64,000 bases of DNA, taken from NCBI GenBank assembly GCA_963666215.2, contig CAXWPL010000004.1, positions 96,001 through 160,000 on the forward strand, written 5' to 3'. The translations under genes were made by a program, and so were the position numbers. The stretch is from Acidobacteriota bacterium. GTDB lineage: Bacteria > Acidobacteriota > UBA890 > WLXD01. The notes beneath the pieces were generated by a model. The model was not told the DNA's origin and did no database searches. It saw only the letters and a list, made by a program, of their open reading frames with translations. This document shows, piece by piece, positions 20,731 through 57,656 of the stretch (positions are counted from its first letter, which is position 1; each line of letters opens with the position of its first letter).

Positions 20731-20748
20731 TTCTACTAACCAGTCAAC
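20731..20748. promoter_or_regulatory. Putative operator 1 (thiolase-mutase operon)
   Basis: TTCTACTAACCAGTCAAC; matches the shared palindrome. Confidence 0.7.
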
Positions 20749-20898
20749 TTATGAAGGCGACGACGGTCGCGAACTCTGCGGTTCGAGACGCTCTACAACA
20801 AGCAGGCCGGGATAGTAAGTGGCTTGATCGTAATGACTTGGGGGAGTCTTTCCAAGCTTCGCAACTGCTTTCTGGACCTCCGCGCCCAGAAGTTGGAT

Positions 20899-20916
20899 AC
20901 TTACCCGCGAGTTGAT
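20899..20916. promoter_or_regulatory. Putative operator 2 (symporter operon)
   Basis: ACTTACCCGCGAGTTGAT; overlaps a GATACT -10-like hexamer. Confidence 0.55.
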
Positions 20917-20947
20917 CCATTGGCAACATCCAGTTTCCGCCCCTCAC

Positions 20948-20981
20948 CCCTGCCGACTCGAACCGCTTCGAGTCGGCAGGG
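20948..20981. other. Perfect 15-bp stem-loop in the symporter operon leader
   Basis: CCCTGCCGACTCGAA-ccgc-TTCGAGTCGGCAGGG. Confidence 0.8.
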
Positions 20982-21002
20982 ACAGCCGGACAGGCCAACA
21001 AC

Positions 21003-21122
21003 ATGACCCCCTTGCCCCACTGGATTTTCCTGTTCGGGACCATGATCGTTTACTTCATCATTGGGTTCGTCGTCTACGCCTTCTACGGTCGTGCAGGCCG
21101 CGGCTCTGGAGGCGACCGATGA
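21003..21122 (+). CDS. 39-aa single-pass membrane protein, probable symporter small subunit
   Basis: MTPLPHWIFLFGTMIVYFIIGFVVYAFYGRAGRGSGGDR; ATGA overlap with the symporter; absent from the ORF track. Confidence 0.7.
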   Translation: MTPLPHWIFLFGTMIVYFIIGFVVYAFYGRAGRGSGGDR

Positions 21123-22612
21123 ACCCCATGCTAGTCGCCTTCGGCCTGTACCTGGCGGCGATCGTTGCAATCGCCGTCTGGCACATGCGGAGCATCCAGT
21201 CGTCCTCCGACTTCTTCCTCGGTGGGCGGGGAATCGGCCCCATCGGCACGGCCATCAGCGCCGCGGCATCTGCCCGCAGTTCCTCTGCCATGGTGGGCCA
21301 GGCCGGTCTGGCGTTCATGGTGGGCTTCCAGGCCGTGTGGATCGTTTTCGCGGCGACGATTCTCGAGTATCTGGCGATGCTCTACCTGCTCGGGCCAAAG
21401 CTGCGACGGTTCTCGAGTCGGCGTGGAGCCATCACCATCCCCGAGTATCTCGAAGAACGGTTCCGCGACAGCAACAACCTGTTGCGCTTGCTGTCGGCGT
21501 TGGCGCTGATCGTATTCATGATGGCGTACATCGCGGCCCAGTACGTGGGCATGAGCTTCGTGGTGTCACAGGTGTTCGACTGGCCGCTGGTGCCCGCCAT
21601 CATTGTCGCCGCGATCATCACCGCCGCCTACACCATGTTCGGAGGCTACAAGGCCGTCGTCTACACCGATGTGATGCAGGGCTGCATGATGGTCCTGGCG
21701 CTCGCCGTTGTGCCTTTCTTGGCCTGGCGCGCCGCCGGCGGCCTCGAGAACGTCGTGTCCGAGCTCAACGTGATTGGTGGCCCCGGTCTCTCGGGCATCA
21801 TCGGAAGCAACGGCTGGCCCTTCGCCATCGGGATGCTCTTCGCCGGTCTCGGTGCTTTCGGCAACCCCCATATCGTCGTGCGCTACATGAGCATCAGGTC
21901 GGTGCGCGACTTCCGACTCGCAGCACTGGTGAATCTGATCTTCAACATCATCATCGGCTGGGGTGGCATCATCCTGGGGCTCGCCGGCAGGGTGCTGTAT
22001 CGCGACGTCACGAGCCTACCTTTCGAGAATCAGGAGATGGTCTTCTTCAGTATCAGTCGCGACATGATCCCGTCGGCTTTCCTGCTGGGGGTGATCTGGG
22101 CCGGCGTCTTCGCCGCCATGATGTCCTCGGCAGACTCCATGATCATGGTCGTCACGTCCTCAGTGAGCCGCGACATCTATAAGAAGATCCTGAAGGCCGG
22201 CGTGGAGATCAAAGAGAGCACCGAGTTGACTATCGATCGCGTCACCGTGGCGCTGGTCGTGCTCGTCTGCCTGTTCCTCACCTTCTTCCTCGAGAAATCC
22301 GCCCTGGCCATCGCGTTGTTCGCCTGGGGCGGCCTGGGAGGCGCCCTGGGCCCGGTGATCCTGCTCTCGCTCTGGTGGCCACGGATGACCAAGTGGGGTG
22401 CGGTGGCCGGCCTGGTGGGTGGCATCGGCATGGCGGTGTTCTGGCGATTCACGCCGGCGCTCACCGCCATCGTCAGCTACGAGGCTCTGCCGGCGTTCCT
22501 GTTCGCCACCGCCGCCGCTTGGCTCACCAGCCTGGCCACCGAGCCGCCAGACGATCCAACGCTCGAAGAAGACCTGGCGTTCCCCGATTGGGACGACATG
22601 GAGCTGCGCTAG
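21119..22612 (+). CDS. Sodium:solute symporter (PutP-like)
   Basis: DFFLGGR, TIPEYLEERF, YTMFGGYKAVVYTD, GNPHIVVRYM, AAMMSSADS. Confidence 0.9.
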   Translation: MNPMLVAFGLYLAAIVAIAVWHMRSIQSSSDFFLGGRGIGPIGTAISAAASARSSSAMVGQAGLAFMVGFQAVWIVFAATILEYLAMLYLLGPKLRRFSSRRGAITIPEYLEERFRDSNNLLRLLSALALIVFMMAYIAAQYVGMSFVVSQVFDWPLVPAIIVAAIITAAYTMFGGYKAVVYTDVMQGCMMVLALAVVPFLAWRAAGGLENVVSELNVIGGPGLSGIIGSNGWPFAIGMLFAGLGAFGNPHIVVRYMSIRSVRDFRLAALVNLIFNIIIGWGGIILGLAGRVLYRDVTSLPFENQEMVFFSISRDMIPSAFLLGVIWAGVFAAMMSSADSMIMVVTSSVSRDIYKKILKAGVEIKESTELTIDRVTVALVVLVCLFLTFFLEKSALAIALFAWGGLGGALGPVILLSLWWPRMTKWGAVAGLVGGIGMAVFWRFTPALTAIVSYEALPAFLFATAAAWLTSLATEPPDDPTLEEDLAFPDWDDMELR

Positions 22613-22649
22613 TGTTCACGGCAGCAGCCGGGCACGCCGCGGCAAACAG

Positions 22650-23657
22650 ATGACGTACGGCGAGATCTGGGAGCGCGGCATGGCTCGCCTCGAGGAGATG
22701 GGGCGGGCTAACGACCTCGACCTGGCGTGCGAGACCAGGTCGTCCACCTCTCTCAATCGCAAGTACCTCGACTCGATAGCGATCGAGATGCGGTTGCTGA
22801 AGGCCGTCGTCGCCGACACCACGACGCAGCTCTTTGGCACACAGCTGCAGTCGCCGGTAATCGGCGCCCCGTTGGGCTTCGGCCGCGTTTTAGGACAGCT
22901 CGCCGAGCACGGTCCCCAGTACGGCACGGGCTACCTCGAGCCCATCGCCGCCGGGCTGGCCGACGCCGGCTCCATGATGGGCGTCGGCGTGGCGCCTGCC
23001 GAGCAGTTGCAAAGCGTGCTCGACGTCGGAGCCCCAACCTACGTCATCGTCAAGCCGTACCGGGAGCGCGAGCGGATCCTCAGCAAGATCCGCGACGCCG
23101 AGGCGCGCGGTGTGGTCGCCGTGGGCATCGATATCGACGCTGGCTACGGCGTTCGCACTCGTTACGAACCGGTGGGAGAGACGTACAACGCCCCGCTCAG
23201 CCCCGCGGAGCTGGCCGAGGTTCGCGCCAGCACCAAGCTCCCCTTCATCCTCAAGGGAATCCTGTCGGTCAGCGACGCCAGGGCCGCCGTCGACGCCGGG
23301 GTCGACACCATCGTCGTCTGCAACCACGGCGGCGAGATCATCGACTACGCCGTGCCTCCTCTCAAGGTGCTGCCCGACATCGTCGAGGCGCTGGCGGACT
23401 CGAAGATCACGATCCTGGTGGGCTCGGGACTGCAGACGGGCACCGACGTCCTCAAGGCTCTGGCACTCGGCGCCGACGCCGTCATGCTGGGGACTCCGCT
23501 CATCGTCGGCCTGGCGGCCGCTGGCGCCGACGGGGTTGCGGCGCTGGTGCGGGGCCTGAGCGACGAGCTTCGGCGCAATCTGTCGATCGTGGGCGCGGCG
23601 ACTCCGAGCGACGTCGACCGCTCCATCCTCCATTTCCCCTTCCTCGGCGGCTCGTGA
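22650..23657 (+). CDS. FMN-dependent alpha-hydroxy-acid oxidase-family protein (divergent)
   Basis: LPFILKGILS..DA, NHGG, DVLKALALGADAV. Confidence 0.8.
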   Translation: MTYGEIWERGMARLEEMGRANDLDLACETRSSTSLNRKYLDSIAIEMRLLKAVVADTTTQLFGTQLQSPVIGAPLGFGRVLGQLAEHGPQYGTGYLEPIAAGLADAGSMMGVGVAPAEQLQSVLDVGAPTYVIVKPYRERERILSKIRDAEARGVVAVGIDIDAGYGVRTRYEPVGETYNAPLSPAELAEVRASTKLPFILKGILSVSDARAAVDAGVDTIVVCNHGGEIIDYAVPPLKVLPDIVEALADSKITILVGSGLQTGTDVLKALALGADAVMLGTPLIVGLAAAGADGVAALVRGLSDELRRNLSIVGAATPSDVDRSILHFPFLGGS

Positions 23658-23691
23658 TGCGGCGGCCCGGGCAACACGCCGCGGGTTCGTC

Positions 23692-25056
23692 GTGCTGACA
23701 CCTCGCGTGCTGCAGGCGCTGGCAGACTCGTGGCCAAATTCCCGCGAGGGCTACGACCGTGCGTCGCGAGTCATCCCGTCGGGCACGGTGAGCCGCGCCC
23801 GCATTCTGGACCCGTTCCCGTTCCTCACCGCGCGGGCCGCTGGTGCACGTGTTGTCGACGTGGACGGCAACGAGTACATCGACTGCGCGATGGGGTTCGG
23901 CTGCCACCTGCTCGGCCACGCGCATCCCGTGGTGGTCGAGGCAATCCGCGAATCGGTGCTCGAGGGCACCGGCTACGGCACCCCCCATCCGCGCGAGGCC
24001 CGTCTCGCGGAGCTCCTGGTAGACAGCATTGCGTGCGCCGACAAGGTGACCTTCGCTAACTCGGGATCTGAGGCCACGCTCAATGCCATCCGAATCGCCA
24101 GAGGTTTCACCGGCAAGTCGGGCATTGCCAAGTTCGAGGGTGGGTACCACGGTTGGTACGACGCGGTGCTCGGCAGCGTGTACCACGACCCGGCGGCCAG
24201 CGGCGCCATCGACGAGCCGGCGTTCTTCTCGCACTCCATCGGCGTCCCCGCCGAAAACCTGGCTCACACGTACGCCCTTCCGTTCAACCATGAGGCTGCC
24301 TTCGAGCGCATCCGTAGCCTCTCGGACAAGCTCGCGGTGGTTCTGGTGGAGGCCGTTCAGGGAGCTGGCGGAGCCATCCCAGCGGATCGCGCATGGCTGC
24401 ACGGGTTGCGCAGAGTTTGTAGCGAGTGCGGCGTCCTGCTGCTCATCGACGAGGTCATTACCGGCTATCGCCTGGCGCGTGGCGGCGCCCAGGAAACCTA
24501 TGGCGTCGAGGCAGACTTGGCGACCTACAGCAAGGTGGTGGGCGCCGGGTTGCCGATTGGCATCATCGCCGGCACCGAATCGGTCATGGGAATGCTCGGG
24601 ACCACCGGAGACCCGGCTCGCGATCTACGCGACAAGGTCTACTACGGCGGCACCTTCAACGGCTCCGTGCCCGTCATGGCGGTGGGAATCGCGGTCCTCG
24701 AGTACCTGGAGGAGCACCCGGAGGTGTATGGGCGACTCAACGATCTCGGGGCAACCCTACGCCAGGGCCTCACCGAGATGATCGCGGCTGGCGGCTATCC
24801 AGCCACCGTTCTCGGAACCGGCTCGATGTTCATGCTCCGGTTCATAGAACATCCGGTGCATAGCTGCAGGGACCTGAGCGGCGAGAACGGCGGCGCCTAT
24901 CGCGAGCTTTTCCCGCGGCTGCTGCAGCAGGGTGTGTTCATGGCGCGGACACATTTCGGGCTGCTCTCCACCGCCCACACGGACGACGACGTGAGCCGCA
25001 TCGTCGAGGCACATGCCGCCGCGCTAGCTGGCATGCGGAAGGACGGAGTGCTCTAA
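23692..25056 (+). CDS. Class III PLP aminotransferase (glutamate-1-semialdehyde aminomutase-like)
   Basis: DVDGNEYID, NSGSEA, KFEGGYHG, DEVITGYR, YSKVVGAGLP, GTFNG. Confidence 0.88.
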   Translation: MLTPRVLQALADSWPNSREGYDRASRVIPSGTVSRARILDPFPFLTARAAGARVVDVDGNEYIDCAMGFGCHLLGHAHPVVVEAIRESVLEGTGYGTPHPREARLAELLVDSIACADKVTFANSGSEATLNAIRIARGFTGKSGIAKFEGGYHGWYDAVLGSVYHDPAASGAIDEPAFFSHSIGVPAENLAHTYALPFNHEAAFERIRSLSDKLAVVLVEAVQGAGGAIPADRAWLHGLRRVCSECGVLLLIDEVITGYRLARGGAQETYGVEADLATYSKVVGAGLPIGIIAGTESVMGMLGTTGDPARDLRDKVYYGGTFNGSVPVMAVGIAVLEYLEEHPEVYGRLNDLGATLRQGLTEMIAAGGYPATVLGTGSMFMLRFIEHPVHSCRDLSGENGGAYRELFPRLLQQGVFMARTHFGLLSTAHTDDDVSRIVEAHAAALAGMRKDGVL

Positions 25057-25119
25057 GGGAGTGCTCTAACAGTCCACGTCGACGAGCCGGCGGGGCGGCG
25101 GGCAGCGGGGCGGCGGGCA
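25045..25119. repeat. Two short tandem duplications
   Basis: GGAGTGCTCTAA at 25045-25056 and 25058-25069; GCGGGGCGGCGGGCA at 25090-25104 and 25105-25119. Confidence 0.75.
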
Positions 25120-25168
25120 CGGAGACATCGTACCGAGCACATGATCAGACTGTCGAGGAGGGAATGGA

Positions 25169-26614
25169 ATGGCGAGGTGCTGGCAGTTTTATACGCTCAC
25201 GCTGGTTGCAGCGATGGCAATCAGCGGGTCGCCTCCCCTGGCCGCGGGCGCCCAAACCTCGGCGACCGCGCTCCTCTATCGCGACGGCCACAAGGAAGCG
25301 GCGAGCGCCCGACGTGCCGCGATGATGACGGCCATGGAGGGCGGGCTGGCGGTCATCACCAGCGCCGATCGCAGCCAGCCGAACCTCTACGAGTACTACC
25401 CCGACGATACGGAGAGCCACGACTTCATCTTCTTGACTGGCATGTACGATCCGGCGCCCCCGGGATCGATCCTCGTGCTCAACCCCGACGGAAGCACCTA
25501 TCGCGAGGTCCTGTACACCGCCGATGATCTCGAAGAGGCGAGGCGCGTCACCGGAATCGAGCACATCTTCCAACACGAGAAGTTCCTCGAGCACTTCTCC
25601 AGCGCCCTCACCGACTATCGTAACCTGCGCATCACGCAGCTGCGCTTCAAGCCGGTCGCCTCGGACCTGGCCCGCGGCTGGGGCAACTCCGACAAGATCC
25701 TCTACGTCAACTACCCCCGCTTCAACAACCTGAGCGAGCCCGCGAATCCCCGGCTCGAGTTCGTCGACCGCCTGAGGGAGGCCACGCCGGAGCTCGACCT
25801 GCGTGACGCTGGCGACATCCTGGACCGGATGCGGATGGTGCTCGACGATTTCGGCCAGATTCAGGTGCGGCGCGCCATCGAGATCACCGGTAGGGGGCTG
25901 ATGGAGGGCATGAAGCTGGCTCGCCCGAGCCTCAGCACGAAACAGGTGATGGAGGCGGTCAACCACGTCTACCGCCTCAACGGGGCCCGCCTCGGGTTCA
26001 ATACCGGTGTTTCGCCGGCCAGCAATCTGAACGTCGAGCTGCGATGGGAGAACACCCGCGACGAGGAGGCGGCGCGAAAGGGCGACGCCCCGATCTTGCC
26101 GGGCAGCCTGGTGCATTTCGACACCGGAGCCGCGTTCAATCACTACTCGGCCGACATTCAGCGGACGGTCCCAGCCGACGGCACCTTCACGGACGAGCAG
26201 CGTCACGTGTATCAGACGGTTCTCGACGTGCAGAAGACTGTGATCTCGAACGTACGTCCCGGAGTCACCTGGCAGGAGCTCCACGACATGGCGGTGACGA
26301 TGCTGCGCGACGCCGGGGGCTGGGACGAGAGCTACACGTACGGGATCGGCCACTTCATCGGCATGGAGGTGCACGAGCACGGCGACTACACGATTCCACT
26401 GGAGCCGGGCATGGTCCTCGCAATCGAGCAGGGCGTCATCGTCGACGGCACGCGTGTGGCCTTCGAGGACGACGTGCTGGTAACCGGGGATGGCCACGAG
26501 TGGCTGAGCCGCTTCATCCCAATCGAGATCGACGAGGTCGAGGCGTTGCGACGGGAGGCACCGGCTAGCGACCCGAGCCAGCTCCTCCTCCCGCTGCCGA
26601 AGCGGCAGCGGTGA
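25169..26614 (+). CDS. Secreted M24-family metallopeptidase (Xaa-Pro aminopeptidase-like)
   Basis: Signal peptide; D..YSADIQRT, GHFIGMEVH, IEQG and FEDD metal ligands. Confidence 0.85.
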   Translation: MARCWQFYTLTLVAAMAISGSPPLAAGAQTSATALLYRDGHKEAASARRAAMMTAMEGGLAVITSADRSQPNLYEYYPDDTESHDFIFLTGMYDPAPPGSILVLNPDGSTYREVLYTADDLEEARRVTGIEHIFQHEKFLEHFSSALTDYRNLRITQLRFKPVASDLARGWGNSDKILYVNYPRFNNLSEPANPRLEFVDRLREATPELDLRDAGDILDRMRMVLDDFGQIQVRRAIEITGRGLMEGMKLARPSLSTKQVMEAVNHVYRLNGARLGFNTGVSPASNLNVELRWENTRDEEAARKGDAPILPGSLVHFDTGAAFNHYSADIQRTVPADGTFTDEQRHVYQTVLDVQKTVISNVRPGVTWQELHDMAVTMLRDAGGWDESYTYGIGHFIGMEVHEHGDYTIPLEPGMVLAIEQGVIVDGTRVAFEDDVLVTGDGHEWLSRFIPIEIDEVEALRREAPASDPSQLLLPLPKRQR

Positions 26615-26624
26615 TTGGCGGCAA

Positions 26625-27446
26625 ATGAGCGTCGACCCGGAAACACCGTCCGGCGGATCGTCGGCGGCGGGTGTGGGTCAACGCCTCGAGATCGTGGCAG
26701 TCCCCGGTATTCCGGAGGTGCGGCCCGGTGACGATCTCGTGGAGCAGATACTCGCCGCTCTCGAGGGGGCCCGGCTCGAGCTCCGTGACCACGACATCGT
26801 CGTTGTGGCTCAGAAGATCGTCTCGAAGGCTGAGCAGCGAGTGGTGGATCTCGCCTCCGTGCGTCCGGGGCGGATGGCTCGCGAGTGGGCAGAACGGCAC
26901 GGCAAAGACGCCCGCCAGGTACAGGTGGTGCTCGACGAGTCGGTGCGCATCGTCCGCATGGATCGCGGCGTCATGATCTGTGAGACCCGCCACGGGTTCA
27001 TCTGTGCGAATGCCGGGGTCGACGCCTCCAACGCCCCGCCGGGGTGTGTCCTGCTATTGCCAAGCGATCCCGATGCGTCGGCGCGCCAGTTGCGCGTCGG
27101 CCTCCAAGGTGCCACGGGGGCCCGCATCGGCGTCATCGTCACCGACACCTGGGGACGTCCATGGCGGCTCGGAATCACCAACGTCGCCATCGGCGCCAGC
27201 GGCGTGCCGGTGCTGCGCGACCATCGGGGCGAGCAGGATCCCGCAGGACGACCGATCCGCGTGACCGTGGTGGCGGTGGCAGACGAGTTGGCAGCCGCGG
27301 CCGAGCTGGTCATGGGCAAGGTCTCGCGGATTCCGGCGGTGATCGTCCGAGGTCTCGAGAGCGGACGGCTCGACGAGGGGCCCAACGCGAGCGGCTGCGG
27401 CGCCGGCAGTTTGGTTCGCCCCACCGAAGACGATCTCTTTCGCTAG
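26625..27446 (+). CDS. cofE: Coenzyme F420-0:L-glutamate ligase
   Basis: PEVRPGDDL, QKIVSKAE, ANAGVDASN, DTWGRPWR, ADELAAAAELVMGK, DDLFR. Confidence 0.92.
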   Translation: MSVDPETPSGGSSAAGVGQRLEIVAVPGIPEVRPGDDLVEQILAALEGARLELRDHDIVVVAQKIVSKAEQRVVDLASVRPGRMAREWAERHGKDARQVQVVLDESVRIVRMDRGVMICETRHGFICANAGVDASNAPPGCVLLLPSDPDASARQLRVGLQGATGARIGVIVTDTWGRPWRLGITNVAIGASGVPVLRDHRGEQDPAGRPIRVTVVAVADELAAAAELVMGKVSRIPAVIVRGLESGRLDEGPNASGCGAGSLVRPTEDDLFR

Positions 27447-27477: not shown

Positions 27478-28011
27478 TCAGCTCGCCGGCCGCCGCCCCA
27501 CGAGCATCCGTGCATCCCAGACCAGCACGATCTCGTCGTGCTGGTTGATGACCTCTCCATGGTAGTGGAGGATGCCGCGGGCATCGTCTTTGGCGATGAG
27601 ATCGACAACTCGATTCGCCGAGTGCAGCGTGTCGCCGATCCGCACTGGAAGCAGGAAACGGATTCTGTCGATCCCCGAAAAGGCGATGAACGTGCGTGGT
27701 AAGTACTGGTGAGGACCGTGCCGCAGGATTAGCGTGGAGCCGATCGCCAGGGTCAGCAGGCCATGGGCGATCCGCTCCCCGAACTGACCCGCCTCTGCGG
27801 CGGGGGCATCGGTATGCAAGGGATGCCAGTCGCCGGTGAGGCTGGCATAGGTCACGACGTCGGTCTCGGTGACCGTCCTGGCAGGGCTGACCAGCACCTC
27901 GCCAACCTCGTAGTCCTCGAGATACACACGCTCGACGTGCGTCCGCCGATCCGAGGTGGCATCGCCGCCGACTGTCGAGGTCGCTTCTGCCTGGGGCATA
28001 TCAGTGGTCAC
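27478..28011 (-). CDS. MaoC-family hot-dog dehydratase
   Basis: RTVTETDV..YASLTGDWHPLH, RIAHG, RF..PVRIGDT. Confidence 0.88.
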   Translation of the reverse strand: MTTDMPQAEATSTVGGDATSDRRTHVERVYLEDYEVGEVLVSPARTVTETDVVTYASLTGDWHPLHTDAPAAEAGQFGERIAHGLLTLAIGSTLILRHGPHQYLPRTFIAFSGIDRIRFLLPVRIGDTLHSANRVVDLIAKDDARGILHYHGEVINQHDEIVLVWDARMLVGRRPAS

Positions 28012-34381: not shown

Positions 34382-34432
34382 CGGTCTCTCCTGCCGGCGC
34401 GCTTTGCGGCTGACGGGCTCCGTCAACTCAGC

Positions 34433-43179: not shown

Positions 43180-43804
43180 ATGGCAACTTCAACCGGAGAC
43201 GCTAAACAGAAGAAGCGTGACCGCTTCAACCGCAGACGCGATCTCATCATCGAAAAGGCGACTCAGGTATTCGGCCGCAAGGCGTTCCACGCCACCACTC
43301 TGGACGAGATCGCGGAGGAGCTCGGCGTCACGAAGGCTAGCCTCTACTACTACTTTTCTACCAAGGAGGGAGTTGCTGTACGCGGTTCTGCTGACATCGA
43401 TCGGAGAGCACCTGGAACTCGCCGACCGAGTGCTCGAGGAGAACCCCGACGCAGCCCCGGCCAAGAAGCTGGAACTGCTGATTGCCGAACACATGCGGTT
43501 GCTGGCGACCAAGTACGAACACGCATTTCTGCTCCAGCAGGAATACGAGCTTGCCGAGCCCCATCGCACGAAGATCGTCGATCTGCGCAAGGAGTACCAG
43601 GCACGGTTTTCCAGGGTCCTGCACGAAGGAGTCGAGAAACACAGTTTCCGGGTCAGAGACCAGAGCATCGCCGTCCTGATGATCCTCGGCTCGATCAACT
43701 GGTTCCTGCGCTGGTACCGGTCAGACGGGCGGTTCACGGTCGACGAAATCGCCCGGACCTTCGTCGACATGATCCTGCACGGCCTGCTGGCGAAAAACGC
43801 GTGA
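43180..43804 (+). CDS. TetR-family regulator (KstR2-like C-terminus) with a 1-nt frameshift at ~43369
   Basis: TTLDEIAEELGVTKASLYYYFSTKE in one frame; ELLY...LGSINWFLRWYRSDG in another; extra G in aaggagggag. Confidence 0.85.
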
Positions 43805-43847
43805 TGGCCAGGCATCTCGCACCGCCCGGCACGGGACGTTAGTCGGC

Positions 43848-45748: not shown

Positions 45749-45812
45749 CGTCGATCACCACACCAGCGCGCCGGGCTCGGACGAAAGCCCTGCGCCCGCC
45801 GCGGAGGACATC

Positions 45813-49401: not shown

Positions 49402-49403
49402 CG

Positions 49404-49533: not shown

Positions 49534-49552
49534 TTTGACTCTCCAGTACAAT
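49534..49552 (+). promoter_or_regulatory. Putative operator 10 overlapping a TACAAT -10 box
   Basis: TTTGACTCTCCAGTACAA(T). Confidence 0.65.
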
Positions 49553-49586: not shown

Positions 49587-50942
49587 ATGTTCACCCGCGT
49601 CATGGTGGCAAACCGCGGCGAGATCGCCGTTCGGATCATGCGTTCGCTGCGCGAGATGGGAATCGAGTCGGTGGCGGTTCACTCCGACACCGACGCCGAC
49701 TCGCTCCACGTGCACCTGGCCGACCAGGCGGTCGCGATCGGCCCTGGCCCGGCGGTCCAGAGCTATCTCAGTGTAGACGCTCTCCTGGATGCGGCGCGTA
49801 GGAGCGGCGCAACCGCAGTACATCCGGGCTACGGCTTCCTGGCCGAGAACGCCGGGTTCGCCGCCGCCTGCGAGGCACAAGGGCTGGCGTTCATCGGACC
49901 CACACCGGAGAACATCGCGCTCGCCGGAAACAAGCTCGTCGCCCGAAAGACCATGGCGGCGGCAGGGCTGCCGGTGGTTCCCGGCTCCGACGCGAAGATC
50001 GATGACCTCGATGACGCGAGGGCGGCCTGCAAGGAGGCCGGCTTCCCCGTGATGCTCAAGGCGGCCGCGGGAGGCGGTGGTCGAGGCATGCGCGTGCTGA
50101 CCGGCGAATCGGAGCTGGTCGAGGATTTCGCCATTGCCCGCGGTGAAGCCAACGCCGCTTTCGGCGATCCCACACTCTACCTCGAGAAGCTCGTCCCGGA
50201 AGCGCGCCACGTGGAAGTGCAGGTACTGGGCGACGGAACCGGCGCCGGCGTCCATCTCGGCGAACGCAACTGCTCGGTCCAGCGGCGCCACCAGAAGCTT
50301 GTCGAGGAGAGTCCGTCGCCCAGGCTCGGCGAGGACCTGCGCAGCGCTCTACACCGCGCTGCGCTCGACGCGGTGGCTGCCCTCAACTATCGGAACGCCG
50401 GCACCGTTGAGTTTCTGGTCGACCCCGACGACCGTTTCTACTTTCTCGAGCTCAACTCCCGCATCCAGGTCGAGCATCCGGTGAGCGAGTTGATCACCGG
50501 CGTCGATCTGGTCAAGGCCCAGCTGCGAATTGCCGCGGAGGAACGATTGCCGTTTCACCAGGGCGACATCACGTTCCGCGGCCACGCCATCGAGTGCCGC
50601 ATCAATGCCGAGGACCCCGACGACGATTTCCTGCCGCAGCCCGGGACCATCGTCAACTTCCGACCACCCGGAGGGTTCGGTGTAAGACTCGACACGCATG
50701 TGTACGCGGGCTACACGATGCCGATCTACTACGACTCGCTGCTGGGCAAGCTGCTGGCTCTCGGGGCGGACCGCGACGAGGCCATCGCCGTGATGTCGAG
50801 GGCGCTCGACGAGCTCGAGATCGGCCCGCTGCGCACCACAACGGCCTTCCTGCGCCGCGTGATGGACGAGCCCACATTCAGAGACGGGACCTACACCACG
50901 ACGCTCTGCCGCCGGATGCTGCCGGACCTCGAAGACGACTAG
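49587..50942 (+). CDS. accC: Biotin carboxylase
   Basis: ANRGEIA, HPGYGFLAEN, GGGGRGM, QRRHQK, RIQVEH, ECRINAED. Confidence 0.92.
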   Translation: MFTRVMVANRGEIAVRIMRSLREMGIESVAVHSDTDADSLHVHLADQAVAIGPGPAVQSYLSVDALLDAARRSGATAVHPGYGFLAENAGFAAACEAQGLAFIGPTPENIALAGNKLVARKTMAAAGLPVVPGSDAKIDDLDDARAACKEAGFPVMLKAAAGGGGRGMRVLTGESELVEDFAIARGEANAAFGDPTLYLEKLVPEARHVEVQVLGDGTGAGVHLGERNCSVQRRHQKLVEESPSPRLGEDLRSALHRAALDAVAALNYRNAGTVEFLVDPDDRFYFLELNSRIQVEHPVSELITGVDLVKAQLRIAAEERLPFHQGDITFRGHAIECRINAEDPDDDFLPQPGTIVNFRPPGGFGVRLDTHVYAGYTMPIYYDSLLGKLLALGADRDEAIAVMSRALDELEIGPLRTTTAFLRRVMDEPTFRDGTYTTTLCRRMLPDLEDD

Positions 50943-51068: not shown

Positions 51069-52064
51069 TCAGATCGATCCCGTCTCCGGCGTGCTTTCGG
51101 GGCCGGTCAGATCGCGATAGGCCTTGGCGGTGAAGCAGAGCCCCAGTGCCGCTCGTGTGGTCATGAACGTGGCATGGGCGGCGAGACTGAATGCCAGTAG
51201 GCGAGGCTCGTCGGCGTAGTCGCCGAAGAAGAAGATCCACGCCACCTGTGTGGTGCCCAGGTGGGCAACGGTAATCGGTAGGGCCGCCAGCATGAAGATC
51301 ACCGGCAGGAAGGTCAACAGCGCCAGGAACGGGATGTGAATGCCGAAGGCGCCGGCCGCCACGTAATGGAAACAGAGCGACGCGAAGAACATCGGCGCGC
51401 GCAGCAGGACGATCTGCAGATAGCGAGCCACCGGGGCAATCTTGAAGGTCCGGAACAGCGACCATTCGCGAGGGCCACCGGCAATCGAGGAGCTGCCGAG
51501 CCCGATGATCCGCCGAACGACCGTCCAGGGACTGAGCCCGGCCCGGGCGTACAGGAGGAAGAACAACCAGAAAACCGCCACCGCGGGTGGCACCCAGAAG
51601 AGCTTTTCGGGGATCCGCTCGTATCCCAGGACCATGCCCGCCGTGGCCCAGCCCAGCAAGTGTGTGTATTCGGTCAGCACCAGGAAGATCACCGTGCTCC
51701 CCAGCTGCAGGAACGGCGCCCTGACGCGACGCGACAGATAGGCCGCCAGGGCCCCGCGCGCCAGGTTGGTGTTGAACATCGCGACGACATAGGACGCAGC
51801 GCGGGCCGGCAGCATGTCGCGATAGCGGATCGGGCCGTGAAACCACCGGATGACGCAGGTCAGCACCAGCGTGTCCCAGCAGAAGTAGATCACCGAGTTG
51901 GGAATCATCAGCGCCAGGAAAACGCCGACGTCGGCCTCGCCCAGGGCCGACATGAGCCGCTCGAGAGGGATCCGCCTGAAGATGAACAGGAAGATCGCCG
52001 CGGTCACCAGGTACGGAACCAGGCGCTGCAGGAGGCGGATTCCGCGCTTCCGCGGCTGCTTCAC
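51069..52064 (-). CDS. Lysylphosphatidylglycerol-synthase TM-domain (flippase-like) membrane protein
   Basis: Multi-TM protein with LPITVAHLG..Q motif; GTGA-coupled to the upstream LLM gene. Confidence 0.65.
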   Translation of the reverse strand: MKQPRKRGIRLLQRLVPYLVTAAIFLFIFRRIPLERLMSALGEADVGVFLALMIPNSVIYFCWDTLVLTCVIRWFHGPIRYRDMLPARAASYVVAMFNTNLARGALAAYLSRRVRAPFLQLGSTVIFLVLTEYTHLLGWATAGMVLGYERIPEKLFWVPPAVAVFWLFFLLYARAGLSPWTVVRRIIGLGSSSIAGGPREWSLFRTFKIAPVARYLQIVLLRAPMFFASLCFHYVAAGAFGIHIPFLALLTFLPVIFMLAALPITVAHLGTTQVAWIFFFGDYADEPRLLAFSLAAHATFMTTRAALGLCFTAKAYRDLTGPESTPETGSI

Positions 52065-53056
52065 CGGAACCGCGGCATCACCTCACGGGCGAAGAGCTCG
52101 AGCGAGCGCGAGGCCTTGTCGACCGGGAAGCCCGGCGGGAACGCCCAGTGAACGAACTCCTCGAAGGGGATCTGCTCGCGCAGCCGGCGGATGGCAGCCT
52201 CGCAGTCGTTCGGCGTCCCGCAGATGAAGTTGCCGCGATCCAGCTGCTCGGCGTCCTCGAGGTCAGGGTCGACGGCATCGCCGGCCTCGCGGTACCAGCG
52301 GCGATAGTCGTTGGCCTGATACAGGTAGTGGTCGCGGATCTCGCGCCACCCGTGCTCCGCGTCCTCACAGCAGTACAGGGCGCGGAAACACTTCATCGAA
52401 TGGTCCGCCGGATCGCGACCCGCGGAGCGCAGTGCGTCGTGATAGGCCTTCTGGACATCGAACGGCGTCGTCGAGGAGGGCAGCAGCCCACAACCGAAGC
52501 GCGCCGCCCGTCTTATTGCCGGCTTCGACTGGCCGCCGATCCACAACGGCATCGGGCTCTGGAGCGGCTTCGGCGTCACTTCCAGGTCGTCGAAGTTCCA
52601 GTATTCGCCGTGGAAGGAGAACGGGCCCGGCTGCCATGCCCGCGTCAAGATTTCCATGGCCTCGTCCATGACTCGGCCGCGGCGTTCGTGTGACACCTCG
52701 AATCCTTCGAACTCCTTGACCCGGTAGCCGACGGCCACCCCCAGGTCGAGGCGTCCACCCGAGAGGATATCGACCACCGCCGCGTCCTCCGCCACCCGCA
52801 GCGGGTGGTGTAGGGGTAACAACAAGATCAAGGTCCCCAGACGCATGCGTTGCGTTCGAGCGGCGACCGCCGCCAGCATCGTCAGCGACGACGGCAAGTA
52901 GCCGTCGTCGATGAAGTGGTGTTCGGAAGTCCACATGGAGTCGTACCCGAGCTCCTCTGCGAGGGTGATCTGATCGAGGATCGCGGGGTAGAGCTCTCCC
53001 CAGGGACGGCTCCACGCACTCGGGTTGCGGAAGTGATACCAGACACCGAATCTCAT
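52061..53056 (-). CDS. LLM-class flavin-dependent oxidoreductase
   Basis: WTSEHHF, HPLRVAEDAAVVD.LSGGRLDLG. Confidence 0.88.
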   Translation of the reverse strand: MRFGVWYHFRNPSAWSRPWGELYPAILDQITLAEELGYDSMWTSEHHFIDDGYLPSSLTMLAAVAARTQRMRLGTLILLLPLHHPLRVAEDAAVVDILSGGRLDLGVAVGYRVKEFEGFEVSHERRGRVMDEAMEILTRAWQPGPFSFHGEYWNFDDLEVTPKPLQSPMPLWIGGQSKPAIRRAARFGCGLLPSSTTPFDVQKAYHDALRSAGRDPADHSMKCFRALYCCEDAEHGWREIRDHYLYQANDYRRWYREAGDAVDPDLEDAEQLDRGNFICGTPNDCEAAIRRLREQIPFEEFVHWAFPPGFPVDKASRSLELFAREVMPRFR

Positions 53057-53150
53057 GTTCTCGAGCTCCCGATCGACGCCGGGCGAGGCGCTGTGATGAC
53101 GCGCGCATCGGATCGTTGCTCCATCGTGCGACTCCTCCGCGGACCTCGGC

Positions 53151-54377
53151 TCACCTCGACAATGAGCCCGGATCCTGTTCCAGGTACTCGCGCAGCTGGC
53201 CCACGAACGCCAGCGCCTGCGCGCCATCAACGACACGGTGATCGAAGGTGAGCGACACCGGGAGCACGGGGCGCGCCACCACTGATCCGTTCTCCACGAC
53301 CGCACGATCGACGATGCGTCCGAGACCGAGAATCGCGACCTCCGGGGGCCGGATCAGCGAGGTGCCATAGTGGCCACCGGCAGGACCCACATTACTGATC
53401 GTGAAGGTCCCGCCGCGCATATCCTCCGGCGTCAGCTCGTGCTGCTCGGCAGCGTCGCAGAGACGCTGAATCTCCACACCAATCTCGAAGAGATCGCGAC
53501 CGTCTGCCCGTTTCACGACCGGCACGACCAGGCCCTCCGACGACGACACGGCGATGCCGATGTCGCGGGCTTTCTTCAGCACGATCATCTCGCGCGACTC
53601 GTCGAGTGAAGCGTTCAGCCAGGGGTGCTGCCGCAGCGCCAGGGCGACGGCCTTCACCACGAAAGAGAGGTACGTCAGCTTGACGCCACGCGACTCCGCC
53701 TCGGGCTTCAGACGCTCGCGCTCGGCAACCAGCCGGCCGACTACGAACTCGTGGAACCCGGCAACGTGCGGGATTTCTCTGTACGACTTGGCGAGGGTCT
53801 CCGCGACACGGCGCCGGATGCCTCGCAGGGGCACCTCTTCGTCTGCGGTGACCGCCGCAACTGCCGTGTCGCCCGCCGCAGCGGCGGCAGCGCTCCCCGA
53901 GAGCGAGTCGAAATGGCGCTGGACGTCCTCCGGGAGGATCCTTCCCCGCGGGCCGGATCCCGGCACTGCCGTCAGATCCACCCCTAGCTCCCTGGCAAGC
54001 CGGCGCGCCGAGGGCGCGGCAGGCACGTTGCCGGCCGGGGCCCCGGCAGCGGTCTCGAGGGGCGGCGCGGCGACGTTTGCGGCGGCGGTTCCAGCGGCCG
54101 GCGCGCCGGCGTCGGCAGTATCGGCGGTGCCCGGATCGGCGACGTCCATCACCAGTAACAGGTCACCCACCGGCACCCGCTCGCCCACCGCGGCAGCCAG
54201 GTGGACGATCCGTCCGGTGGCGGGTGCCGGCATCGACACGATCGACTTGTCGGTTTCGATGTCGGCGATCTCCTGGTTCTCTTCGACCCAGTCGCCGACG
54301 GCGATCTTCCATTCCGAGACCTCGACCTCAGCCAGACCTTCACCGACGTCGGGCATGTGGAATTCGAACTTCGCCAT
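53151..54377 (-). CDS. 2-oxoacid dehydrogenase E2 (dihydrolipoamide acyltransferase)
   Basis: Lipoyl ETDK, A.PSARRLARE binding domain, DHRVVDG. Confidence 0.92.
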   Translation of the reverse strand: MAKFEFHMPDVGEGLAEVEVSEWKIAVGDWVEENQEIADIETDKSIVSMPAPATGRIVHLAAAVGERVPVGDLLLVMDVADPGTADTADAGAPAAGTAAANVAAPPLETAAGAPAGNVPAAPSARRLARELGVDLTAVPGSGPRGRILPEDVQRHFDSLSGSAAAAAAGDTAVAAVTADEEVPLRGIRRRVAETLAKSYREIPHVAGFHEFVVGRLVAERERLKPEAESRGVKLTYLSFVVKAVALALRQHPWLNASLDESREMIVLKKARDIGIAVSSSEGLVVPVVKRADGRDLFEIGVEIQRLCDAAEQHELTPEDMRGGTFTISNVGPAGGHYGTSLIRPPEVAILGLGRIVDRAVVENGSVVARPVLPVSLTFDHRVVDGAQALAFVGQLREYLEQDPGSLSR

Positions 54378-54380
54378 GGC

Positions 54381-55364
54381 TCAGACCTGCGTCGCTTTCT
54401 CGATCCCCGCGAGCACGCGGGCCTCGTCGATCAAGTACTGGGGCTCCAGCATCTGCACGGGATAGGGCGTGTCGGGTCCGCAAACGCGGACGAGCGGTCG
54501 ATGCAGCGCGAAGAAAGCGTCCTCGTTCTCGAGAATCGTGGCAATCACCTCGCCGGCGAATCCAGCGGTCTTGGAGGCCTCGTGGACGATCACTCCGCGG
54601 CCCGTTTTGGCCACGGACGCCCAGAGAGTCTCCGCATCGAGCGGCACCAGGGTCCGCAGATCGATCACCTCAACCGAGATGCCGCGCTGCGCGGCGGTTT
54701 CCGCGGCCGCCGTCACGACCTCCACCGCGGCGCTCCAGGCGATCACGGTGCAATCGGTGCCCTCGCGCACAACGCGCGCTTTGCCCAGCGGCACGAGGTG
54801 CTCTCCGTCGGGAACCTCTCCTCGGATCAGCCGGTATCCACGCAACGGCTCGATGTAGATCACCGGGTCGGGGTCGCGCACGGCGCTCGCCAGCAGTCCC
54901 TTGGCGTCGGCGGGGTTGGACGGAGCCACCATCTTCAGCCCGGGTGCGTGGGCGAGGTGGGCCTCGAAGGAATCGGAGTGCATCTCCGGCGCTCGAACGC
55001 CGCCGCCGCACGGCATGCGCAGGGTCACCGGGGCCGAGAGGCTGCCCCACGACCGGTAGCGCACGCGGGCGAGCTGCTCGACGATCTGATTGAAGGCGTT
55101 GTGGGTGAATCCCATGAACTGGATCTCCGCCACTGGCACCATGCCGGCGATCGCCAACCCCACCGCGGCGCCGACGATGGCGCCCTCCGCCAGCGGCGTG
55201 TCGACAACCCGAGCCGATCCGAACCGCTCCTGGAGCCGGTCTGTGGCGCGGAACACGCCGCCCGACTGACCGACGTCCTCACCCAGGATCATCACCCGCT
55301 CGTCGCGCTCCATCTCGGCTTCCAGAGTCGACCGGATCGCCTCCACCATGGTCATGTCGGACAT
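54381..55364 (-). CDS. 2-oxoacid dehydrogenase E1 beta subunit
   Basis: GEDVG..GGVFR.T, DTPLAE, EIQF.GF, HS.S.EA, DLRTL.PLD. Confidence 0.92.
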   Translation of the reverse strand: MSDMTMVEAIRSTLEAEMERDERVMILGEDVGQSGGVFRATDRLQERFGSARVVDTPLAEGAIVGAAVGLAIAGMVPVAEIQFMGFTHNAFNQIVEQLARVRYRSWGSLSAPVTLRMPCGGGVRAPEMHSDSFEAHLAHAPGLKMVAPSNPADAKGLLASAVRDPDPVIYIEPLRGYRLIRGEVPDGEHLVPLGKARVVREGTDCTVIAWSAAVEVVTAAAETAAQRGISVEVIDLRTLVPLDAETLWASVAKTGRGVIVHEASKTAGFAGEVIATILENEDAFFALHRPLVRVCGPDTPYPVQMLEPQYLIDEARVLAGIEKATQV

Positions 55365-55366
55365 CG

Positions 55367-56440
55367 TCACATCCCCCGCGGCGAGGGAAGAGCAGATACG
55401 TGCCGCAGGCTCTCCTCGAGACTCGGCGGTGCTTCGGCCTGTGCTTCCGCCCACGCCGCCTCGAGCTGCGCGTTGATCTCCTCCTCCATGGCGCGTTCGA
55501 TCTCGTCGTCCCACTTGCCCTTGCGCGCAAGGTAGCGCTGGATGCGGAACAGCGGATCCTTGGGCTCCCAGGTCGCCCGCAGCGCCGGGTCCTCGAACCG
55601 TGTGCCGGCATCGGCGGTGGTGTGGATGCCAAGACGGTAGGTAAAGCCCTCGATGAGAGTCGGGCCGTCACCGCGTCGCGCCCGCGCCACCGCGTCGCGC
55701 ATGACCTCGTAGACGGCAAACAGATCGTTGCCGTCAACCAGCACTCCCGGGAACCCGCAGGCCATGGCCTTGTGGGCCACGGTCGGAGCCGCGGTCTGCA
55801 GCGGTCGCGACGTCGAGATCGCCCAGTGGTTGTTCTGACAGAAGAAAATGACCGGCGCCTTGCTCACGCCGGCGAAGTTCGCAGGCTCGTAGAAGTCCCC
55901 GTGCGAGCTGGCGCCCTCGCCGAAGTGCACCACCACAACATCATCTCGGCCGCGCAACCTCAATCCCCACCCCAGCCCGACTGCGTGTGAGATCTGCCCA
56001 GCAACCGCTGCCTGAAAGGGCAGCATCCGGAGCCCCTCCGGAATGTGGAAGCCGAGAGGGCTGCCCATGTGCCAGAGATATCCACGCACCAGAGCAAAGC
56101 CGTGGAGGAATTGTCCGGCGGCCTCGCGATACTGGGGCACGAACCAGTCCCGCTCGGGCTCCACGGCCATCACGCTCCCAACACTGCAGGCCTCCTGGCC
56201 GATGCCAGGGGCAAAGGTCACCATCAAGCCGCGTCGCTGGAGCTTGATGCAGTGCTCGTCAAAGCGCCGCCCCAGCATCATCGCGCGCAGCCCGGCGAGG
56301 GCTTCGTCGTCGGTGAGGGGTGGTGTATCGACCAGGAGGTTGCCGTCGGTGTCGAGCACCGAGTAAGGCTCCGGCACATCCTCTGGTGTGATCTCGAGAA
56401 CCCGGTATCTCGTCGTCTTCAGCATCGCCTTCTTCCCCAT
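55367..56440 (-). CDS. 2-oxoacid dehydrogenase E1 alpha subunit
   Basis: GQEA, YRE, GEGASS..NN ThDP motif, TYR..HTTAD. Confidence 0.9.
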   Translation of the reverse strand: MGKKAMLKTTRYRVLEITPEDVPEPYSVLDTDGNLLVDTPPLTDDEALAGLRAMMLGRRFDEHCIKLQRRGLMVTFAPGIGQEACSVGSVMAVEPERDWFVPQYREAAGQFLHGFALVRGYLWHMGSPLGFHIPEGLRMLPFQAAVAGQISHAVGLGWGLRLRGRDDVVVVHFGEGASSHGDFYEPANFAGVSKAPVIFFCQNNHWAISTSRPLQTAAPTVAHKAMACGFPGVLVDGNDLFAVYEVMRDAVARARRGDGPTLIEGFTYRLGIHTTADAGTRFEDPALRATWEPKDPLFRIQRYLARKGKWDDEIERAMEEEINAQLEAAWAEAQAEAPPSLEESLRHVSALPSPRGM

Positions 56441-56503
56441 CTCTTGCCTGGCCCAGCCGGCCGCGCGACGACGGCACTTGGCCGTCGGCGCGTATCACTC
56501 TCT

Positions 56504-57430
56504 TCAAGCATCGAGCGTCGCAATGATCTCGCGGCCGAAAGCGTGGACGAGCTCCACGTGCTGCTCCGCGGTCTCGTGCTCGAACTGGCACACGAAGTCG
56601 GTCGCCCCGAGATCCCGGTAGCGCCGCAGGAAGGCCCGTATCTGAGCAAAGGACCCGCGACACCCTATCTCCGACTCGCCTCCCATGTAGTGCCCTTCTA
56701 CACCGTCTCCGTGACGTGCGATTCCAGTCGCCTCGAACAGGTCGACGCTGAAACGAACCGTCGCCGCCAACGCCTTCTCACCACGACCCTTCGCTAGCCG
56801 ATTCATGCGTTCCACGGCGCGGCCGAAATCGTCCGGCATGACCTCGTCGCCATGCCAACCATCGCCGAGCAGGCCCGCACGCCGCACGGCAGCCGCCGAG
56901 TTGCCACCGATCCAGATCGGCGGTCCGCCCGGCTGTGAGGGCTTGGGCTCGAACAGCGCCTCACCGTAGTGGTAGAACTCACCCTGGAAGCGAGGCCGCG
57001 CCTCGGTCCAGAGGTTCCTGAGCACGCCGATGGACTCGTCCAGCAGACGCCCGCGCTGGTGGAAGGGCGCGCCGACGAAATCGTACTCCTCCTCGTTCCA
57101 GCCGACCGCCACGGCGACGATCAAGCGCCCCGGGGCGAGGGCGTCGAGCGTCGCCAGCTGCTTGGCGGCCAGCACCGCATTCCGCATCGGCAGCACCAGC
57201 ACCGACGTCCCGATGCGGATCCTGTCGGTATGCGCGGCTACCCAGGTCAGCGTCACAAGGCTCTCGTAGACGTTCCCGTAGCGCGGGTGCTCGGGACCGA
57301 CCAGAATATGGTCGGTCGTCCAGATCGACGTGTACCCGGCCTGCTCCGCCGCCTGCGCGACACCGAGAATGTGTTCCGCCGACGGATTCGCACCATATTT
57401 GAAGTTGGGAAGCGCAACTCCGAAATCCAC
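56504..57430 (-). CDS. LLM-class, probably F420-dependent, oxidoreductase
   Basis: SIWTTDH, MRNAVLAAKQLATLD, VGWNEEEY, PIWIGG, GDGW. Confidence 0.88.
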   Translation of the reverse strand: MDFGVALPNFKYGANPSAEHILGVAQAAEQAGYTSIWTTDHILVGPEHPRYGNVYESLVTLTWVAAHTDRIRIGTSVLVLPMRNAVLAAKQLATLDALAPGRLIVAVAVGWNEEEYDFVGAPFHQRGRLLDESIGVLRNLWTEARPRFQGEFYHYGEALFEPKPSQPGGPPIWIGGNSAAAVRRAGLLGDGWHGDEVMPDDFGRAVERMNRLAKGRGEKALAATVRFSVDLFEATGIARHGDGVEGHYMGGESEIGCRGSFAQIRAFLRRYRDLGATDFVCQFEHETAEQHVELVHAFGREIIATLDA

Positions 57431-57492
57431 TCTGGTCCCCTGATCCGTGCCGTCCAGACGTGGCGGCGAGTTGGCAGAATACCGCCGCAGCC

Positions 57493-57510
57493 TTCGACTT
57501 TCCAGTTAAT
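57493..57510. promoter_or_regulatory. Putative operator 11
   Basis: TTCGACTTTCCAGTTAAT. Confidence 0.6.
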
Positions 57511-57627
57511 AGAAGATTGGCACGCTACGACGTCGATTCGATCGCTTACGATAGGCTGAACCGGGGCCGGAGGTGCGTGTTTCTCTTAGTCGATCCCGCG
57601 CGACTACAGTAGGTACTTTCGTCGCTG

Positions 57628-57656
57628 TTCGCGCAAGTTCAACCGGAAAGTAGAAT
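57628..57656 (+). promoter_or_regulatory. Promoter TTCGCG-17-TAGAAT containing operator 12
   Basis: Operator TTCAACCGGAAAGTAGAA at 57638-57655. Confidence 0.65.

Follow-up and report, generated by a model that had tools for sequence, protein, structure and literature searches.

The occlusion of catabolic promoters by TetR repressors bound to palindromic operators is a textbook mechanism, and several described regulators of this kind resemble the system that we discuss here. It lies in the window, by which we mean the whole 64,000-nucleotide stretch of an Acidobacteriota genome that was analysed (G000:C4:96001-160000, 66% G+C; the assembly, G000, comprises 4.65 Mb in 5 contigs), where an 18-bp palindrome recurs at the promoters of a large gene cluster which also encodes a TetR-family regulator. 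From sequence comparison we consider it probable (roughly 0.75) that the palindrome marks the operator regulon of the cluster's own PfmR/FadR-like TetR repressor. What sets it apart from ordinary TetR regulons is that it is large, recurs in distant lineages, has a broken regulator and provides a context for exported proteins of no known role.

The descriptions of known systems that follow draw on excerpts of the cited papers. PfmR (TTHB023) of Thermus thermophilus HB8 (PDB entry 3VPR; PMC10636190) is a repressor of phenylacetate and fatty-acid metabolism genes. The 16-bp palindrome selected for it reads (a/c)Y(g/t)A(A/C)YGryCR(g/t)T(c/a)R(g/t), also given as YKAMY-GryC-RKTMR, and its sites, at times two to a promoter, are located in bidirectional promoters and upstream of the pfmR gene itself (PMC7022988). 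DarR of mycobacteria and Rhodococcus, whose effectors are c-di-AMP and cAMP and whose complexes with DNA have been solved (PDB 8SUA, 8SVD), binds the operator ATACT-N4-AGTAT, with each subunit reading a TxC motif (PMC10636190). The FadR proteins of Thermus and Bacillus are YsiA-type acyl-CoA sensors, the Thermus operator being TTRNACY-N-RGTNYAA (PMC5597230). On the side of physiology, the LiuQ (TetR) and LiuR (MerR) regulons of Proteobacteria, predicted by comparative genomics, control the use of branched-chain amino acids (PMC5343134).

How does our locus compare? In a PDB search with the cluster TetR, 3VPR was the best match (E 9.3e-31, 110 bits, residues 19-202), ahead of 3DCF (106 bits), KstR2 (64 bits, E about 1e-16) and DarR (E 1.5e-16). 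Given the modest identity to PfmR, the cluster TetR is not its orthologue, yet the two recognition helices are similar (SKAALYHHF in PfmR, TKASLYYYF here) and both palindromes, as far as the excerpts give them, keep the same register, with A and T nine apart and an N4 centre; the differences lie in the outer half-site bases (cTGAC in PfmR versus TTCTAC here) and in the regulon. With DarR the motif has the core TAC(Y)-N4-(R)GTA in common, and the half-site TTC-TAC holds two TxC motifs; the flanks differ, and the recognition helix of the cluster TetR has Lys-Ala where that of DarR (TKGLIYYHF) has Lys-Gly. The Thermus FadR half-site TTRNACY is close to the TTYKACY of the cluster, although its centre is one base rather than four. 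The C-terminal domain of our TetR also matches the YsiA-like family TetR_C_4, the Bacillus FadR entries 1VI0 and 3WHB match at about 1e-14, and the best NCBIfam match is FadR (NF053878). A TnnAC-Y half-site is common to PfmR, DarR, Thermus FadR and the cluster motif, and a four-base centre to all of these except FadR.

The earlier note on this DNA had named a KstR2-like TetR as the most likely regulator. Comparative evidence bears out the cluster TetR as the likely binder, whereas the resemblance to KstR2 (64 bits over a full-length alignment; PDB 4W1U, 4W97) is surpassed by that to PfmR (110 bits). KstR2 belongs to the same broad CoA-thioester-sensing TetR clade as the cluster protein, but no KstR2 model was among the 15 NCBIfam matches of the TetR, and the KstR2 box, AnCAAGnnCTTGnT, is unlike the cluster motif. 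In its architecture the system recalls LiuQ and LiuR, where one local regulator likewise has palindromic sites before several branched-chain amino-acid catabolic operons, though in the LiuQ excerpt the regulon averages about 5 genes per genome, against about 60 here. A literature search of partial coverage found no paper on this operator, and a full-text search for TTCTAC together with TetR and operator returned just primers and unrelated papers.

The palindrome has the consensus TTCTACY-N4-RGTAGAA with the half-site TT[CT][TG]AC, carries about 17 bits and spans 18 bp. Gene calls come from our own codon-usage model and annotation from Pfam and NCBIfam. Coordinates are window positions unless stated otherwise, and scores in bits refer to an external matrix (information 17.1 bits) of 24 sites from four sources outside G000, namely G003 (a genome of the same family but another genus), G234 (a genome of another family) and L022 and L023 (two contigs of metagenome-assembled genomes titled Acidobacteriota). 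The sites in the window are as follows.

20731..20748, operator site before the thiolase-like/HMGS-like/DUF35/acyl-CoA ligase/methylmalonyl-CoA mutase operon (minus strand); 17.5 bits
20899..20916, moderate operator site before the operon of a small open reading frame and an SSF symporter (plus strand); 14.6 bits
28043..28060, operator site in the MaoC promoter (minus strand), TTGACT-17-TAAATA, -35 matching at 5/6; 19.5 bits, G003 counterpart 22.5 bits
28073..28090, doubtful site before the ASPIC/UnbV-TPR operon; 9.2 bits, G003 counterpart 7.2 bits and poorly aligned
37716..37733, operator site in the promoter of the DUF885-MFS-LLM-DUF885 operon (minus strand), TTGACT-17-TAGAAA; 18.8 bits, block of about 35 nt conserved in G003
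37920..37937, weak to moderate site before the SnoaL gene (plus strand); 12.1 bits, block CACTACTAAC..GGTAAAG.TAGTAGTTT conserved in G003
41887..41904, operator site in the Vps10/BNR promoter (minus strand), TTGACA-17-TAGAAA, -35 matching at 6/6; 21.9 bits, 17/18 bases as in G003
41991..42008, putatively autoregulatory operator site in the promoter of the BCCP-SDR-TetR-thiolase-F420 oxidoreductase-enoyl-CoA hydratase operon (plus strand), TTGCCA-17-TAGGAT; 20.0 bits
49404..49421, operator site at the start of the HpcH aldolase-OYE operon (minus strand); 22.9 bits, G003 counterpart CTCTACCCGAGAGTCAAG with 14/18 bases in common
49534..49551, operator site before the biotin carboxylase gene (plus strand), -10 TACAAT; 19.9 bits, block conserved in G003
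57493..57510, operator site before the LLM-branched-chain 2-oxoacid dehydrogenase E1a/E1b/E2-LLM operon (minus strand); 18.2 bits, G003 counterpart TTCGACTGTCCAGTCAGT
57638..57655, operator site before the solute-binding protein-SDR-multiheme cytochrome operon (plus strand), -10 TAGAAT; 20.3 bits, conserved in G003

These are the twelve copies that the earlier note had reported, two in each divergent intergenic region. All 12 strings are present exactly and each is unique; the window has exactly six divergent (-+) gaps of at least 40 bp, every one with two sites, and none of the 19 other gaps has any. As operators, nine are strong (17.5-22.9 bits) and two moderate (20899 and 37920), while the borderline 28073, which is not conserved in G003, does not uphold the full dozen. 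The proposed extent of about 49 kb proved too small. Further sites lie beyond the window, four of them at the window-equivalent positions 80299, 85845, 85909 and 91378 and a fifth, weak one at 76460, so that the system spans about 71 kb (C4:116.7-187.4 kb), some 27 kb past the window end, and comprises about 16 operators at the promoters of about 16 operons with about 60 genes.

The repeated palindrome is confirmed as a real motif, local to the cluster and conserved. When dyads were counted de novo in the six divergent gaps (all 4096 half-sites, spacers 0-10, at most 2 mismatches in 12), the top ones were TCTACT-N4-AGTAGA (6 sites in 5/6 regions) and TTCTAC-N6-GTAGAA (4 regions), which is the palindrome first picked by eye. 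None of 300 dinucleotide shuffles matched 5 regions and 6 sites; when six real low-GC divergent gaps were instead drawn at random from the rest of the genome, one of 300 draws equalled this and two reached 5 regions. Genome-wide, TTCTAC-N6-GTAGAA occurs six times at 11/12 matches or better: three fall in coding DNA, and the three noncoding occurrences all belong to the window.

The external matrix tells the same story on the scale of the genome. All eight noncoding matches of at least 18 bits in the 4.65 Mb fall in the cluster, as do 10/12 of those with at least 16 bits, inside one 72-kb stretch; a matrix built from the ten Acidobacteriota-locus sites alone places 10/11 of its noncoding matches of at least 16 bits in that same stretch. 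When 1646 gaps of 100-600 bp were ranked by their best site, cluster gaps took ranks 1-7, 9 and 10, and by their second-best site ranks 1-7. Among 35 gaps between 15 and 100 kb, the ten with a match of at least 8 bits include all seven divergent gaps of the cluster. Of 1626 gaps outside it, none has a best site of 17.5 bits or more, one reaches 14.6, 11 reach 12.1 and 45 reach 9.2; the few noncoding matches there adjoin dnaE, rplQ/rpoA and rpoD and therefore look like chance. Rfam had no match anywhere in the window.

Conservation adds a further line of evidence. Of 30 relatives searched, G003 was the only close one; its cluster is orthologous but rearranged, with proteins 56-93% identical. 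A matrix of G000 sites found 18 matches of at least 12 bits in 160 kb of G003, of which 17 are noncoding and most stand before orthologous operons; the remaining one lies inside the Vps10 gene, at the position equivalent to 40387 in G000. The orthologous gaps are 22-49% identical overall, and within them the sites and their -35 boxes form conserved islands. Their central bases vary: at 41991 the half-sites are kept in G003 and the central six bases changed. No orthologue of the thiolase-like gene at 19503-20690 was found in G003, which leaves the sites at 20731 and 20899 without a conservation comparison, and the G003 SSF operon has no matching site upstream as a counterpart of 20899.

Reading along transcription, the proximal half-site (G-TAGAAw) serves as the -10 element at most promoters and the distal half lies in the spacer. 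At five of the 16 sites the -35 agrees with TTGACA at five or all of six positions, at a spacing of 17-18 bp with the half-site as the -10. The claim that at least four sites fill a 17-bp spacer holds for 28043, 37716, 41887 and 41991, and past the window end the promoter at 85845 reads TTGACA-18-TAAAAC. Because the site fills the spacer and the -10 behind a near-consensus -35, this is repressor geometry. Good -10 elements accompany weak -35 elements at 57638 (TAGAAT) and 49534 (TACAAT), and the site at 91378 is abutted by a perfect TATAAT.

Two of the -10 elements lie very close to the genes that they serve. At 41878-41891 the -10 of the Vps10/BNR gene is just 5 nt from the called GTG start, and at 49399-49421 that of the HpcH gene is only 1-2 nt from the called start, compared to a G003 HpcH site about 35 nt before the ATG. 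Such short distances mean either leaderless mRNAs or miscalled starts; at 41887, the five bases between -10 and GTG suggest a leaderless mRNA.

The palindrome is tied to the TetR by their co-occurrence in other genomes. TetR was the sole DNA-binding protein that Pfam found among the called cluster genes. Across 401 sampled genomes from the phylum, orthologues at E of 1e-35 or lower occur only in G000, G003 and G234. The G234 protein is 58% identical, and there a BCCP-biotin carboxylase-SDR-TetR-thiolase operon diverges from an MFS gene with a perfect TTCTACTCGATAGTAGAA in between; the same genome has a divergent DUF885 pair with sites. On L022 and L023, whose TetRs are 51-52% identical, the neighbours are an outer-membrane protein, an S9/PD40 protein, MFS, SDR, an aminotransferase, a carboxyltransferase and E1; together the two contigs have 10 matches of at least 19 bits in 25 kb, with every promoter gap occupied, and independent dyad counts on each put TTTGAC-N6-GTCAAA on top. 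As the earlier note had observed, the TetR's own operon carries a site: 41991 heads BCCP-SDR-TetR in G000, and equivalent sites precede the operon in G003 (77329), G234 (12771) and L022 and L023 (5567/5736). Further away the pairing dissolves, as 26 loci with TetR homologues of at most 45% identity (about 232 kb) contain a single match of at least 19 bits. We also searched G003, G234 and the L022 and L023 genomes with a loose IUPAC pattern but discarded the outcome as uninformative, given that coding matches of the TTCGAC..GTCGAA type dominate and reversed-pattern controls scored as high or higher in two genomes; the zero-mismatch matches of this search bunch on the TetR contigs.

The regulator gene itself is split:

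43180..43804, plus strand, TetR-family regulator gene with a one-base frameshift near 43368-43372, helix-turn-helix and TetR_C_24 in different frames

Within 43180-43842, frame A encodes TetR_N (PF00440, E 1.2e-15), and TetR_C_24/TetR_C_4 follows in frame B, whereas in the orthologues of G003, L022, L023 and G234 both domains share one frame. Aligned with the intact 207-aa gene of G003 (L014:18338-18961), the G000 gene has a single additional base, which lies near 43368-43372 and directly behind the recognition helix. The TetR that comes next in similarity in G000 shows 31% identity. Besides the contigs with the same frameshift that are discussed below, a fourth, variant contig (run X11) differs by 5 letters and by "17 gaps" whose positions are not placed.

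Two further TetR genes are worth recording in their own right. G003 has a second copy between BCCP and thiolase genes (L089:1492-2292; G003:C2:1961340-1962140), 62% identical to its first and frameshifted near residue 151. In G000, a TetR_C_24 paralogue with 31% identity (G000:C5:1029199-1029886, locus L093:4199-4886) is the first gene of an operon that also encodes a LeuA-like synthase and an aconitase-family protein, and 29 bp upstream stands a palindrome, ACCGACCGATCGGTAGGT, which resembles a PfmR-type box. This looks like a second, separate and small TetR regulon.

Several observations weigh against the cluster TetR as the binder of the palindrome, or soften the evidence for it. In G000 the helix-turn-helix and the C-terminal ligand-binding and dimerisation domain are not on one polypeptide, and contigs from three runs of three studies are identical over 41800-44100, frameshift included. 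Although one of these runs may be the source of the assembly, the agreement between studies means that the frameshift is probably real, and it follows that the G000 protein cannot now be what maintains the conserved operators. The second G003 copy is frameshifted as well. The dyad count did not recover the motif de novo in G234 and ranked it second in G003, behind a GC-rich dyad, and the absence of such a motif at the loci of TetR homologues with 41-45% identity confines the link to close orthologues. The FadR family model of NCBIfam was matched below its cut-off (76.4 versus 200 bits), so the TetR is not a FadR equivalog. No clear promoter register is apparent at 57493, 20899, 49404 and 85909, and part of the operator conservation may come from the -10 that it overlaps. 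Finally, the sites of the external matrix were themselves chosen with a G000 matrix, which deprives the rankings of full independence; neither the dyad test nor the site density in other genomes suffers from this.

There are three competing explanations. A real operator might be bound by another factor encoded elsewhere, for example the TetR_C_24 paralogue (G000:C5:1029199-1029840), with the cluster TetR as a passenger. Such a factor would account for intact operators beside a broken cluster TetR, and a candidate of the same C-terminal family is at hand in G000. We nevertheless regard this as unlikely, as the TetR orthologue sits inside the motif-bearing locus in four other genomes or contigs in which Pfam reveals no further regulator, a different box (ACCGACCGATCGGT) precedes the leuA-like operon of the paralogue, and loci of more distant TetRs lack the motif.

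That there is no repressor at all, and the palindrome is a mere common promoter architecture with a -35, a fixed spacer and a TAGAAT-type -10, perhaps of a particular sigma factor, is less probable still. The spacers of sigma-70 promoters are not normally conserved, but here the distal half-site, although it lies within the spacer, matches the -10 half in its degree of conservation, and the halves are just 6 bp apart; sites such as 49404, 57493 and 85909 have no promoter register, none of the 1626 outside gaps reaches 17.5 bits in spite of the many promoters in the genome, and the palindrome co-occurs with TetR orthologues. All this outweighs the fact that the proximal half-site is the -10 at many sites and that TTGAC-like half-sites resemble a -35. 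Least credible is the view that by-eye selection assembled chance matches from AT-richer gaps, or that a single promoter cassette was duplicated, against which stand the shuffle, random-gap and matrix-ranking controls, the variation of flanks and central bases between sites and the conservation of sites against diverged flanks in G003. It is true that the invariant core is short (AC...GT), that 28073 is at chance level and that 80299 and 85845 do stem from a segmental duplication, but we would give this explanation next to no weight.

Returning to the cluster's own TetR as the repressor, a dimer would bind each operator, one half of which is, at most promoters, the -10 (TAGAAw) while the other fills the spacer. 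Since the operator there occupies both, a bound dimer would block RNA polymerase, and the operator before the TetR's own operon would make the regulator autoregulatory via 41991. An acyl-CoA made by the pathway probably releases the repressor, to judge by the TetR relatives and the CoA-dependent enzymes of the regulon. Binding, repression and effector are thus what we infer from comparison, and in this sense the main proposals of the earlier note (one palindromic operator, repressor geometry and the cluster TetR as its likely binder) are supported.

As the reading frame of the TetR gene in G000 shifts by one base directly behind the DNA-reading helix, the repressor is probably dead there and its regulon derepressed, and the presence of the same frameshift in the contigs of three studies means that the switch may be lost in this organism. 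More tentatively, and at somewhat less than even odds, we may be looking at a regulon without its regulator, a peptide and branched-chain amino-acid island of about 71 kb and 60 genes that was recently and permanently switched on in this lineage. The basis for this is that the only repressor orthologue is frameshifted, alike in three studies, that the nearest other TetR is 31% identical and that about 16 operators are intact. One of the two TetR copies of the sister genus has likewise been lost. If so, having all genes under one operator would tie the exported DUF885, CRTAC1-like ASPIC/UnbV and Vps10/BNR proteins to protein scavenging.

For an uncultured lineage, our analysis offers a predicted regulon of about 16 operons and 60 genes with one predicted repressor and a defined 18-bp operator. 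It places DUF885, bacterial CRTAC1-like ASPIC/UnbV and Vps10/BNR, families of no known role, in a context of co-regulation. As the operator-regulator pair recurs in the distant family of G234 and on two contigs of metagenome-assembled genomes, it could be used to annotate similar loci, and the broken repressor provides a natural comparison of a derepressed with a regulated lineage.

Within the window, the cluster comprises twelve predicted transcription units.

Unit 1 (extent inferred), 11723..20690, minus strand: thiolase-like, HMG-CoA-synthase-like, DUF35 OB, NDP-forming acyl-CoA synthetase, SDR, AMP-ligase and methylmalonyl-CoA mutase genes, in one direction with short gaps
Unit 2, 21003..27446, plus strand: small open reading frame, SSF symporter, FMN dehydrogenase, class III aminotransferase, M24 peptidase, F420 ligase
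Unit 3, 27478..27999, minus strand: MaoC dehydratase
Unit 4, 28169..31767, plus strand: FG-GAP/ASPIC-UnbV protein, TPR protein
Unit 5, 31731..37701, minus strand: DUF885, MFS, luciferase-like oxidoreductase (LLM), DUF885
Unit 6, 38016..38567, plus strand: SnoaL-like protein
Unit 7, 38584..41880, minus strand: Sortilin-Vps10/BNR repeat protein
Unit 8, 42049..46604, plus strand: biotin carboxyl carrier protein (BCCP), SDR, TetR, thiolase, F420-type oxidoreductase, enoyl-CoA hydratase
Unit 9, 46598..49401, minus strand: HpcH/HpaI aldolase, OYE/pyridine-nucleotide-disulphide oxidoreductase fusion
Unit 10, 49587..50942, plus strand: biotin carboxylase
Unit 11, 51069..57430, minus strand: LLM, 2-oxoacid dehydrogenase E1a, E1b and E2, LLM, unknown protein
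Unit 12, 57719..60239, plus strand: Peripla_BP_6 binding protein (Leu/Ile/Val-type), SDR, multiheme cytochrome

The extension past the window end adds five DUF885 genes, three CarboxypepD_reg outer-membrane proteins, an S9 peptidase, an SDR and a class I/II aminotransferase, together with AtuA, its ferredoxin-like partner and a carboxyltransferase. The cluster encodes a split biotin carboxylase (biotin carboxylase, BCCP and a carboxyltransferase with AtuA) and eight exported DUF885 paralogues. Going by Pfam family names, many of its genes would fit the uptake and breakdown of peptides and branched-chain amino acids to acyl-CoA intermediates, among them those for outer-membrane barrels, the S9 and M24 peptidases, the DUF885 proteins, transporters, aminotransferases, the 2-oxoacid dehydrogenase, the split biotin carboxylase, hydratase, thiolases and F420-type oxidoreductases. 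The earlier suggestion that genes which look unrelated are co-regulated accordingly needs a qualification: the common operator agrees with it, but on the same Pfam names the genes would be less unrelated than they seemed.

DUF885 was considered as a metallopeptidase and the idea dropped, as an H[ED]xxH string occurs in just 1/7 copies examined and the PDB relatives are merely "putative lipoprotein". The protein encoded at 51069-52064 has no Pfam, NCBIfam or PDB match. Past the window end, a segmental duplication at G000:C4:172567-181725 (window-equivalent 76567-85725; loci L019 and L020) comprises a module of S9 peptidase, outer-membrane protein and operator. A single G003 gene is the match of both copies of the outer-membrane protein; of the two S9 copies, one is only a fragment of 145 aa, and between the operators 2/18 bases differ.

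Some minor features of the window complete the picture. The thiolase-like/HMG-CoA-synthase-like/DUF35 OB-fold trio at the head of unit 1 (18498-20690 and 17956-18363) may be compared to the archaeal-type thiolase/HMGCS complex. At 1100-2534, the C-terminal part of a fumarate-reductase flavoprotein stands alone; together with a second gene for an iron-sulfur subunit it adjoins a complete frdABCD (2803-6169), of which this may be a broken duplicate. Directly 5' of the SSF symporter gene, the small hydrophobic open reading frame at 21003-21122 is conserved in G003 and probably encodes a small membrane subunit of the transporter.

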